From assembly GCA_964430275.1 (NCBI GenBank), contig CAYSGF010000374.1, positions 1 to 12,706 of the forward strand: a DNA stretch of 12,706 nt. Reading direction: 5' to 3'. Below are positions 10,621 through 12,706 of this stretch, in pieces. The DNA is from an uncultured Gemmatimonadaceae bacterium (lineage in GTDB: Bacteria > Gemmatimonadota > Gemmatimonadetes > Longimicrobiales > RSA9). Position 1 is the first letter of the stretch. Each line of letters starts with the position of its first letter. Under the pieces are notes generated by a model. The model was given only the letters and a program-made list of their open reading frames with translations, was not told where the DNA came from and made no database searches. A program made the translations under genes and the position numbers.

Positions 10621-11874
10621 TCAGGGCCGCCGCCGGAGCAACCTCAGCGCGATTCCCACTGCGAGTACCAGCACACCGGTCGCAAGCGTGCGCGCATCGA
10701 GTGCGAGCGCGAGCAGTGCACACGCAGCGACCCCGAATGCCGGTATAAAGGTCGGCAGCCAGCGTCGATCCGCGGGCATGCGCAGCGCTGCAACGTTCGC
10801 AATGCCGTAATACACCAGTATCGTGAATGACGCAGCCGCAACGACGGCGTCGAGTGCACCGGTCGCAGCCACGGCGCCGGCTGCGATGCCGACGGCGATG
10901 ACTGCGGCGCGCGGCACACCCCGGTCGTCGACGTGGCCGAGCAGTTGTGGCAGGTCCTTGCGACGCGCCATCGCAAAGCCCATCCGGCTGAGTCCGAGGA
11001 TCTGGGAAAGCACGACCCCGAGCATTGCGGTCAAACCGCCGATCGCCACGACATGCGGCAGCCAGGCCGACGGTGTCGCATTCGCTGCGACGTAGAGTGG
11101 CGCAGCCGTGCGAGCCAGCGCGGGTGCACCCGCGGTGCCGACCGCGACAGTGGCGACGGCGCCGTAGAGCAGGAGCGCTCCCACGAGCGTAATGCCGACC
11201 GCGCGCGGGATCGTGCGGCGCGGCTCGCGCACCTCCTCGCCGAGCGTCGCAATGCGGGCATAGCCGGTATACGCGAAGAAGAGCAGTGCAGCGGCGCGCG
11301 CAGTGCCGCTCCAACCGTCGGGTGCAAAGGGTGCGAAGGCGGCACGTGTCATCGAGCCCGCGCCGACCACGACGAAACAGAGCAGCGCGCCAACCGATCC
11401 CGCAACGATCAGCAGGTTCACTGTGCTCGTGCGGCGTACGCCGAACAGGTTCAGCACCGTGAAGAGCACGATTGCGCCGACACCGACCGCGCGCTCGGGC
11501 AGTCCCGGCAGCAGCGCGCCGAGGTAGCCGCCGAGACCGATCGCGATCGTGCCCGCCGCCGCCGTCTTGCTCGCGAGGAACATCCAGCCGGCGACGTAGC
11601 CCGGCCACGGTCCGAGCACGCGATAGCCGTACTCGTAGGTGCCGCCCGCATACGGGTACTCCGCTGCCAGCTGAGCGGAGGAGAGCGCGTTCGCCGTAGC
11701 CGCGAGGCCTGCGATCAGTAGTGCAACGACGAGCGCCGGGCCGGCCACTCCTGCTGCGACGCCGGTCACCACGAAAATGCCACCGCCAATGATGGCGCCA
11801 AATCCGATTCCGACGGCGTCGAACAGGCCGAGCTCGCGGCGGAGCGCCTGGGGCGGAGGAGTCGCTGGGCTCAT
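10621..11874 (-). CDS. APC-superfamily amino-acid permease (~417 aa, 12-TM type)
   Basis: The ORF track gives 10621..12084, but the first 70 codons are Arg-rich low-complexity and would overlap the divergent gene's start. The likely start is ATG 11874 (MSPATPPPQALRRELGLFDAVGIGFGAIIGGGIFVVTG...), the typical APC N-terminus preceding TM1 with its GxG motif. The protein is hydrophobic throughout with multiple TM helices. Confidence 0.75.
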   Translation of the reverse strand: MSPATPPPQALRRELGLFDAVGIGFGAIIGGGIFVVTGVAAGVAGPALVVALLIAGLAATANALSSAQLAAEYPYAGGTYEYGYRVLGPWPGYVAGWMFLASKTAAAGTIAIGLGGYLGALLPGLPERAVGVGAIVLFTVLNLFGVRRTSTVNLLIVAGSVGALLCFVVVGAGSMTRAAFAPFAPDGWSGTARAAALLFFAYTGYARIATLGEEVREPRRTIPRAVGITLVGALLLYGAVATVAVGTAGAPALARTAAPLYVAANATPSAWLPHVVAIGGLTAMLGVVLSQILGLSRMGFAMARRKDLPQLLGHVDDRGVPRAAVIAVGIAAGAVAATGALDAVVAAASFTILVYYGIANVAALRMPADRRWLPTFIPAFGVAACALLALALDARTLATGVLVLAVGIALRLLRRRP

Positions 11875-12017
11875 GTGCGGATCTGAACCCGTCGCGGCCG
11901 ACTCCGCAACCTGCTGCGCGACGGCGGCGGGGCCATATGTCCGGACGCGACGCGACACGGCTGGCGCCCTCGGCGCCAGCGCTGCATCTTGGGCGCAGCC
12001 CCAGCCACGGAGCTGCC

Positions 12018-12593
12018 ATGAAACACTGGATGCTGCCCCTGAGCGCTGTCGGTGCGCTCGCCCTCGCCGCACCCGCTGCTGCACAGGAGCCGGAGAACCC
12101 GCCGCCCCTCGAGATCGGCGCGCTCGCGCCGGACTTCGAGCTGCCCGGCGCGACGCGCTACGGCGTGCTCGCCGAGCCCATCCGCCTCAGCGACTTCAAC
12201 GGCAAAACTGTTGTGCTCGCGTTCTTCTTCAGGGCAAGGACGAAGGGCTGAACGATCCAGATGCATGCGTACCGTGATCAGTACGCTCGGATCTTCAACA
12301 ACGGCCGCGGAACCATTCTCATCGCGATCAGTGCGGACTCGATCGGAGAGCTCGCCGCCTGGGCGCGCGACGACGAGTTCCCCTTCCTGATGGCGAGTGA
12401 TGCAGGCACTGAAGTCGCACGCCAGTACGGCGCCCTCGCGTCGCGCCCCGGCATAACGAACCGCAACCTGTTCGTAGTGGGGCCCGACGGCCGGATCGCC
12501 TATCGCGCTGTACCATTTCGCGAGATCGACCCCACGGCGTACGACGAGCTCGCCGAGGTCGTGGACAGCCTGATGCCGGTGGAGGAGAATTAG
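12018..12593 (+). CDS. Periplasmic PrxQ/Bcp-type peroxiredoxin with an in-frame TGA (12249-12251) at the peroxidatic-Cys position; candidate selenocysteine-containing peroxiredoxin (1-Sec Prx). Alternative reading: a nonsense-mutated pseudogene
   Basis: The track ORFs 11937..12251 and 12261..12593 are in the same frame (both starts are 0 mod 3) and are separated only by a TGA. The joined translation from ATG 12018 (GGAG SD, signal peptide MKHWMLPLSAVGALALAAPAAAQEP) aligns along its length with E. coli Bcp: ALAPDFELP...LSDFNGKTVVLAFFFRARTKG-[TGA]-TIQMHAYRD...GTILIAISADS...FPFLMASD...YGAL...NRNLFVVGPDGRI, versus Bcp IAPKFSLP...[31 protein letters not shown]...VLGISTD...FTLLSD...FGV...RISFLIDADGKI. 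The TGA falls exactly where the catalytic Cys lies in T-x-G-C-T. There is no other Cys in the protein. A stem-loop starts 3 nt downstream. Confidence 0.6.
12254..12293 (+). other. Candidate bacterial SECIS-like stem-loop immediately 3' of the in-frame TGA
   Basis: Outer helix GATCC (12254-12258) / GGATC (12289-12293). Inner perfect 6-bp helix GCGTAC (12267-12272) / GTACGC (12281-12286), closing an 8-nt apical loop CGUGAUCA (12273-12280). A possible G12274-C12279 pair would leave a UGAU tetraloop. The loop G/U residues sit 25-29 nt after the UGA, within the 16-37 nt spacing used for bacterial SECIS prediction. Confidence 0.4.
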
Positions 12594-12601
12594 TTCGGAA
12601 A

Positions 12602-12706
12602 GCCGGAATCCGGAGTGACCGGAATCCGGAGTGCGGAGTGACCGGAATCCGGAATTGCGGAGTGCGGAGCGACCGGAATGACCGGAATGCGGAGTGACCG
12701 GAATGC
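12602..12706. repeat. Composite short tandem repeat array of 9-mer GACCGGAAT and 7-mer SCGGAGT units, running off the window end
   Basis: GACCGGAAT occurs at 12617, 12640, 12671, 12680 and 12696. CCGGAGT/GCGGAGT/GCGGAGC occur at 12610, 12626, 12633, 12657, 12664 and 12689. (G)CCGGAAT occurs at 12602 and 12649. That is ~14 units with no spacers, starting 9 nt after the peroxiredoxin TAG stop. The + strand has stop codons in all frames, so it is non-coding there. Confidence 0.8.

Follow-up and report, generated by a model that had tools for sequence, protein, structure and literature searches.

The stretch of DNA analyzed here, hereafter the window, comprises 12,706 nucleotides of contig CAYSGF010000374.1 (GenBank assembly GCA_964430275.1) from an uncultured Gemmatimonadaceae bacterium. 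Close to its 3' end, on the forward strand, lies a gene for a peroxiredoxin of the Bcp/PrxQ type whose reading frame contains a TGA at the position of the catalytic cysteine, and a stem-loop follows this codon within the coding sequence (Table 1). We propose that the codon is read as selenocysteine (Sec) and that the stem-loop very probably represents a bacterial selenocysteine insertion sequence (bSECIS) with a functional core at 12266-12287, based upon the comparison of orthologous sequences presented below.

Table 1. Coordinates of the peroxiredoxin gene, its in-frame UGA and the associated stem-loop, as positions in the window
Feature	Position	Strand	Remarks
Predicted selenoprotein gene, Bcp/PrxQ-like AhpC/TSA peroxiredoxin	12018..12593	+	191 codons, one in-frame TGA, TAG stop at 12591-12593
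Putative general-secretory (Sec-type) signal peptide (MKHWMLPLSAVGALALAAPAAA then QEP)	12018..12083	+	Inferred from sequence reading
Phe71 (TTC) at the conserved-Pro position of PxxxTxxC	12228..12230	+	F/Y in TGA forms, P in Cys forms
UGA predicted to be read as selenocysteine, at the peroxidatic-Cys position	12249..12251	+	TGA in 159/161 related loci, TGC (Cys) in homologues
Spacer from UGA to the conserved upper stem	12252..12265	+	Spacing to start of apical loop 21 nt
Outer helix, 5' arm GAUCC, lineage-specific	12254..12258	+	Partner of 12289-12293 in the window's minimum-energy structure
5' base of the seventh closing pair, U in the window	12266..12266	+	Pairs with 12287 in 129/131 distinct orthologues
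Upper stem, 5' arm GCGUAC	12267..12272	+	Invariant in 131/131, synonymous sites included; in RNAalifold consensus
Apical loop CGUGAUCA	12273..12280	+	Identical in 122/131; G12274-U12275 candidate SelB contact
Upper stem, 3' arm GUACGC	12281..12286	+	Invariant in 131/131
3' base of the seventh pair, U in the window, mismatched with U12266	12287..12287	+	Supported by pairing in orthologues and changes on the tree
Outer helix, 3' arm GGAUC, lineage-specific	12289..12293	+	Pairs with 12254-12258; only in the window and L081
UUCA, able to pair with UGAA (12249-12252) at the base	12294..12297	+	In the minimum-energy fold of 74/131 sequences

The open reading frame (ORF) at 12018-12251 and the same frame beyond the TGA (12252-12593) together encode a single AhpC/TSA peroxiredoxin. 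With the recoded residue U replaced by C, the Pfam domain AhpC-TSA (PF00578) was matched at 1.3e-27 over residues 33-162, spanning the TGA, and Bcp-type peroxiredoxins of the PDB align across it, matching U78 to the peroxidatic Cys and T75 to the conserved Thr (2ywn). The TxxU motif of the window protein is T75-K-G-U78, with Sec three residues past the conserved Thr, and the protein has no Cys at all and hence no resolving Cys. Protein searches returned many full-length homologues at 60-76% identity, along with "proteins" of 110-118 aa at 83-88% identity that start at a Met just past the TGA; the latter are truncated gene calls.

In order to compare the gene at the nucleotide level, 160 loci were fetched as DNA from genomes and metagenomes, giving 161 loci with the window. 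All 80 loci from taxon-labelled genomes carry the label Gemmatimonadota (80/80), and a further 80 are metagenome loci without a taxon label. The catalytic codon, with the window included, is TGA in 159 of the 161 loci and TGC in two. Fourteen further Cys-form loci were obtained through an exact-protein look-up, for a set of 16 Cys-form loci that comprises 12 distinct DNAs. The codon alignment contained 158 distinct TGA genes and the hairpin alignment 131 distinct orthologous sequences. Outside the hairpin, the mean Jukes-Cantor distance among the 158 genes was 0.38, and on either side of the TGA the gene is conserved while varying at synonymous sites. TGA serves as the regular stop codon for five of the six neighbouring genes in this 67% GC genome; genome-wide reassignment of TGA was rejected on this basis, and the recoding is therefore specific to 12249-12251.

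The sequence-only reading of this DNA had described a two-tier helix with a G/U-containing apical loop downstream of the UGA, and both are present: the inner arms are GCGTAC (12267-12272) and GTACGC (12281-12286), the outer arms are GATCC (12254-12258) and GGATC (12289-12293), and the 8-nt loop CGTGATCA at 12273-12280 carries its G/U at 12274/12275, at a distance of 25-26 nt from the first base of the UGA. Folding of 12249-12300 with RNAfold bore this out, with the two-tier helix as both the minimum-energy and the centroid structure at -16.7 kcal/mol and with UGAA/UUCA pairs added at the base of the hairpin. The hairpin also forms within a 111-nt folded context, and the upper hairpin of the window alone has an energy of -8.2 kcal/mol.

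The strong signal for the hairpin is comparative, and the single sequence gives modest support. Across the 158 distinct TGA genes, the core GCGUAC-CGUGAUCA-GUACGC is fixed almost base-for-base, synonymous sites included. The codons for AYRDQY at 12267-12284 are frozen as GCG (158 genes), TAC (158), CGT (154), GAT (152), CAG (158) and TAC (158). Elsewhere in the same alignment, other fully conserved Ala columns have a codon entropy of 1.1-1.6 bits and other Arg columns favour CGC or CGG. Fitch parsimony counts on a neighbour-joining tree gave no change for the Ala codon at 12267 and 36-56 changes for each of seven further Ala columns that are conserved. The loop G is invariant, and the two loop U's that occupy third codon positions are conserved in 128 (U12275) and 125 (U12278) of the 131 distinct sequences. 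Because CGT and GAT are minority codons in a genome of 67% GC (27 of 227 Arg codons, or 12%, and 41 of 153 Asp codons, or 27%, in the genes of the window), both U's are held against compositional bias.

Adjoining the six invariant pairs is a seventh, 12266/12287, which joins the third position of a His, Asn or other codon to the third position of an Ala codon. Among the 131 distinct sequences this pair is C-G in 66, U-A in 55, G-C in seven and A-U in one, with two mismatches. Fitch parsimony on the neighbour-joining tree gave 18 changes at 12266 (alignment position 18), 19 at 12287 (position 39) and 19 for the joint state, meaning that nearly every change was a simultaneous double change. When mutual information was scanned without bias over -60 to +120, this pair came first by a wide margin and no other RNA pair emerged in that interval; the pairs ranked below it are non-Watson-Crick and stem from differences between amino acids or clades. 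The RNAalifold consensus consists of the 7-bp stem and the 8-nt loop and nothing else, the upper stem is part of the minimum-energy fold of all 131 distinct orthologues, and the distance between the UGA and the hairpin shows no length variation in any of them. The compensatory changes that the sequence-only reading had proposed as a check are thus found in the TGA-containing orthologues, which combine a frozen core with the covarying pair 12266/12287.

The two tiers differ in their conservation. The inner stem and the loop are shared across the family, whereas the outer GATCC/GGATC helix is confined to the window and its sister locus L081. These same two sequences are the only ones without the seventh pair (U-U and U-C, respectively), and one lineage may have traded that pair for the outer helix. 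The inner stem GCGTAC/GTACGC was confirmed as first described, with the amendment that the consensus upper stem is 7 bp long and that the window carries a U-U mismatch at 12266/12287. As a family consensus the two-tier structure was rejected: counting from the U of the UGA, pairs 8-43, 10-41, 12-40 and 13-39 were found in 22%, 1.5%, 14% and 1.5% of the sequences, and the covariation score of the full two-tier structure was no better than that of shuffles. At the very base, pairs 2-48, 3-47 and 4-46 are possible in 98-100% of the sequences and pair 1-49 in 82% (108/131). As UGAA and UUCA are fixed by the conserved UGA-A and by a Phe TTC codon, they give no evidence of covariation, and they are absent from the RNAalifold consensus.

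Homologues in which the catalytic codon is TGC serve as controls, since in the 12 distinct DNAs with TGC the AYRDQY/A peptide is that of the Sec forms but its codons vary. Among the 16 Cys-form loci, some of which share sequence, the Ala codon is GCG in eight, ACG in four, GCC in three and TCG in one; the Tyr codon is TAC in ten and TAT in six; the Arg codon is CGC in 11, CGG in four and CGT in one; and the Asp codon is GAT in eight, GAC in seven and replaced by GCG (Ala) in one. The 7-bp hairpin averages -5.3 kcal/mol in the Cys forms and -9.1 kcal/mol in the Sec forms. Retention of the same hairpin in Cys-codon orthologues had been named by the sequence-only reading as the sign of an incidental structure; seven Watson-Crick pairs are found in one of the 12 Cys DNAs and the CGUGAUCA loop in none. 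The protein tree intermingles Cys with Sec forms and places the Cys loci L161, L169 and L174 nearest to the Sec locus L082, at a distance of 0.11-0.13. All three of these Cys loci show CGT>CGC, and L169 and L174 also show the change TAC>TAT, which is the pattern that would be expected if constraint had been released once the UGA was gone. The accompanying claim that codon choice is free to build the structure, made on the ground that Bcp differs in peptide here, was misleading in that AYRDQY is invariant in Sec and Cys homologues alike, and it holds for the third codon positions, which are free. As read from these alignments, the hallmark of the putative SECIS is that third codon positions and loop U's are frozen only when the catalytic codon is TGA.

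The hairpin was then compared with the bSECISearch consensus model of Zhang & Gladyshev (2005) as summarised in a 2026 review (PMC13188914). According to Fig. 2 of that review, the model allows 3-9 nt for the apical loop and 4-16 bp for the upper stem, places a G at loop position one or two, usually with G or U after it, and requires a spacing of 16-37 nt between UGA and loop and a minimum free energy of <= -7.5 kcal/mol. The hairpin lies within all of the limits given there. Its core (12266-12287) is inside the coding region, downstream of the Cys-aligned UGA; the loop is 8 nt long and reads C-G-U-G-A-U-C-A, with G second and U next; the stem has 6 bp in the window and 7 bp in 129 of 131 orthologues; the spacing is 21 nt (12252-12272); and the energy is -16.7 kcal/mol in the window and between -9.4 and -19.9 kcal/mol in 159 orthologues. 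Conservation with compensatory change is found in TGA orthologues and not in Cys ones, with one of the seven pairs varying. The interpretation of the element as a SECIS of the SelB type is therefore supported by the fold, by conservation among orthologues, by the Cys controls and by agreement with the published model.

The SECIS elements of E. coli fdhF and fdnG are experimentally characterised SelB-binding hairpins. Like them, the element described here is a stem-loop that follows the UGA, presents an apical G-U some 22-26 nt away and can pair the UGA at its base. Unlike them, it lacks a bulged U in the upper stem, its loop is CGUGAUCA instead of a GGUC-type loop, and its G-U is placed approximately one codon further from the UGA.

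Several results weigh against the bSECIS reading. In the single sequence, the z-score of 12249-12300 is a modest -2.37, with 4 of 200 dinucleotide shuffles folding equally well, and the total energy of the 111-nt fold does not stand out (z = -0.14). Six of the seven stem pairs are invariant, so that covariation rests on one pair, and the Fisher tests that separate Sec from Cys forms (p from 1e-12 to 1e-17) ignore phylogeny. No selection on a lower stem was detected in any register, the lower stem contributing -3.5 kcal/mol in native sequences as compared with -3.4 for chimeric and -4.1 for shuffled arms, and the family departs from the bSECIS model in having no conserved lower stem. The CGUGAUCA loop is one base longer than the commonest pattern of that model, its 8 nt not fitting the form N(0-1)G[G/U]N N(0-1)N(0-2) that loops mostly take. 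The peptide AY..QYA is itself encoded by a partial palindrome (GCN-TAY ... TAY-GCN), and the Cys forms keep four to seven of the seven pairs. Rfam yielded no SECIS-like family, either at gathering thresholds on the window or at E <= 10 on 12150-12400; the only hit, an isrA match on the opposite strand (E = 4.3), was dismissed as chance. The selenocysteine machinery genes selA, selB, selC and selD are absent from the 12.7-kb window, no wider genome search having been made for them, and no tRNA-Sec was found in the window or in 694 kb from 174 fetched loci, which cover gene neighbourhoods only. The window contains no tRNAs of any kind. Beyond the peroxiredoxin gene itself, the loop motif did not recur in any selenoprotein gene of the fetched DNA; two stem-loops that lack a TGA upstream were attributed to chance.

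The palindromic character of the codons raises the alternative that the hairpin is incidental, the stem being a by-product of self-complementary codons for A-Y-R-D-Q-Y-A. Such an explanation would account for the invariance of AYRDQY in Sec and Cys homologues and for the pairs (four to seven of seven) that the Cys-form DNAs still form, L161 even forming an 8-bp stem. It does not account for third codon positions that are frozen only in the TGA forms, for a seventh pair composed of two synonymous sites that covaries through four Watson-Crick types in approximately 19 independent events, or for unpaired loop U's that are kept against GC bias, and the Cys forms drift at precisely these third positions, at the seventh pair and at the loop U's. 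An incidental origin is largely refuted by these observations, and we consider it extremely improbable. An equally slight probability is assigned to the view that the inverted repeat acts as DNA, for instance as an operator whose palindrome would be bound by a dimeric regulator, or that it is a hairpin with a part in regulation or stability and none in recoding. The stem is indeed a perfect DNA palindrome, and the seven conserved pairs include no G-U wobble, for which reason the pair types cannot prove RNA-specific pairing. However, the element is strictly tied to TGA and decays in close relatives that have switched to TGC, its distance from the UGA is invariant, and its asymmetric loop is conserved at synonymous sites; the tolerance of four Watson-Crick combinations is likewise typical of base pairing and not of a half-site read by a protein.

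A further alternative concerns the codon itself, which the hairpin might cause to be read through without Sec, by near-cognate Trp or Cys decoding or slow termination by RF2, or might be a true stop that separates two genes, the second starting at ATG 12261. Gene callers do report two ORFs here, of 78 aa and 110-116 aa, and some database entries place W, L or V at the UGA site. Yet the codon coincides exactly with the catalytic Cys of a peroxiredoxin, a position at which no residue other than Cys or Sec supports activity, and the hairpin next to it has bSECIS geometry with the loop G-U present. A thioredoxin fold split in two and lacking its catalytic residue is unlikely to have been kept under purifying selection in 159 lineages, and Sec-containing peroxiredoxins with a TxxU motif are an established family. 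We accordingly judge read-through or a split gene to be quite unlikely, if less remote than the two preceding alternatives, and retain the bSECIS as the explanation of the element.

The apical stem-loop of SECIS elements is what SelB recognises. By analogy with the known mechanism, the elongation factor SelB carrying Sec-tRNASec and GTP would bind the apical stem-loop of this element, probably through the loop G-U, and this tethering would hold Sec-tRNASec at the right distance to enter the ribosomal A site as the UGA comes into position. Delivery by SelB would then outcompete RF2, Sec would be inserted at the peroxidatic position, and translation would continue to the TAG at 12591. In the lineage of the window, where the seventh pair has been lost (U-U), the outer GAUCC/GGAUC helix adds stability from outside the conserved element. 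The near base-for-base fixation of the SECIS may point to a very narrow specificity of SelB in the Gemmatimonadota.

The active site differs from that of the Cys homologues in one further residue. The Pro of the motif PxxxTxx(C/U) is replaced by F or Y in all 159 TGA forms, and it is present in all 16 Cys-form DNAs and in 108 of 109 Cys-form database proteins, the sole exception (P0054) combining Tyr with Cys. The switch between Pro with Cys and Phe/Tyr with Sec is coupled even in close relatives, L082 being a Sec form with FFF and L161, L169 and L174 being Cys forms with FFP. The protein resembles known Sec peroxiredoxins (Prx PF00578, PrxU of Eubacterium acidaminophilum) in its AhpC/TSA fold, in having Sec in place of the peroxidatic Cys and in its TxxU motif. 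It differs from these in being Bcp/PrxQ-like, in its putative signal peptide, in the lack of any Cys, in having Phe/Tyr for the conserved Pro and in its origin from the Gemmatimonadota. The best NCBIfam match was the selenoprotein PrxU model NF040737, which scored 55.6 bits against a curated cut-off of 270, and membership in this equivalog family was rejected. Peroxiredoxin (TxxU) is among the selenoprotein families listed in the review cited above (PMC13188914), and Sec-peroxiredoxin had been recorded in 78 organisms by 2016 (PMC5029168). The mechanism, a bSECIS acting on a Sec-containing peroxiredoxin, is already textbook knowledge and the conceptual gain is modest. The literature that was searched, including the supplements of Peng et al. 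2016, contained no report of Sec use in the Gemmatimonadota (Gemmatimonadetes).

Unusual codon preferences were also observed in the Sec forms at two sites close to the UGA (12237-12239 and 12258-12260, alignment columns 41 and 48). The Gln codon is CAA in 118 of 158 Sec forms, as opposed to CAG in 14 of 16 Cys forms; CAA makes up only 4 of the 112 Gln codons in the genes of the window. The Arg codon four codons 5' of the UGA is CGA in 83 of 158 Sec forms and in none of the 16 Cys forms. The mutual-information scan gave no pairing partner for these CAA and CGA preferences, which might reflect an influence of codon context on Sec insertion or on competition with RF2.

The N-terminus of the protein was read directly from the sequence as a putative signal peptide, and the N-termini of homologues are likewise hydrophobic and end in A-x-A-Q; the peroxiredoxin is thus putatively exported. 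The neighbours of the gene within the window encode M16 peptidases, an SPFH protein, an M14 peptidase, a methyltransferase and an amino-acid permease. Downstream of the peroxiredoxin gene in related loci (L163, L165, L171 and L172 of the Cys form, L175-L178 of the Sec form) is a convergent gene for a TlpA-like Redoxin/Thioredoxin protein, followed by a DsbD_TM (CcdA-like) gene; the contig of the window ends before the position of these genes. The TlpA-like redoxin and DsbD_TM neighbours fit an extracytoplasmic location, and this suggests an extracytoplasmic peroxidase that would be reduced via a thiol relay.

In public gene calls, the selenoprotein is broken up into two ORFs of 78 aa and 110-116 aa (12018-12251 and 12261-12593 in the window, and similarly in L175-L181), and P0042 is the NCBI call for the window's own contig. 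Entries in which the Sec residue is shown as W, L or V (P0005, P0006, P0038, P0039 and P0092) probably come from pipelines that translate TGA differently. On the minus strand, the ORF of the amino-acid permease (10621-12084), as extended mechanically, overlaps the start of the peroxiredoxin gene by 67 nt. Because the Pfam match of the permease starts only at residue 85, its true start probably lies further in, and the two genes would be divergently transcribed. Degenerate tandem repeats with units such as CCGGAAT and CGGAGTG, and with periods of 7, 9, 16, 23, 25 and 31, occupy 12602-12706, from just past the TAG to the end of the contig, and these probably explain why the assembly ends at 12706.

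With regard to annotation, the two fragments of 78 aa and ~110 aa should be merged into one selenoprotein, and the same applies to some 160 further cases in metagenome-assembled genomes of Gemmatimonadota and in soil and sediment metagenomes. The element may mark an undescribed clade of selenoproteins that spans the Gemmatimonadota, exported, with a single Sec in an [F/Y]xxxTxxU motif and served by a SelB of narrow specificity, a proposal that we put forward tentatively and at somewhat less than even expectation. The frozen 22-nt stem-loop provides a defined candidate SelB-binding motif for the phylum. The interleaving of Sec and Cys forms amounts to a natural experiment in which the decay of a SECIS can be followed after a switch from TGA to TGC, and the coupled change from Pro to Phe/Tyr could inform how the peroxiredoxin pocket adapts to selenium. 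Taken as a whole, the result indicates that selenocysteine decoding is widespread in the Gemmatimonadota, an abundant phylum of soil bacteria.

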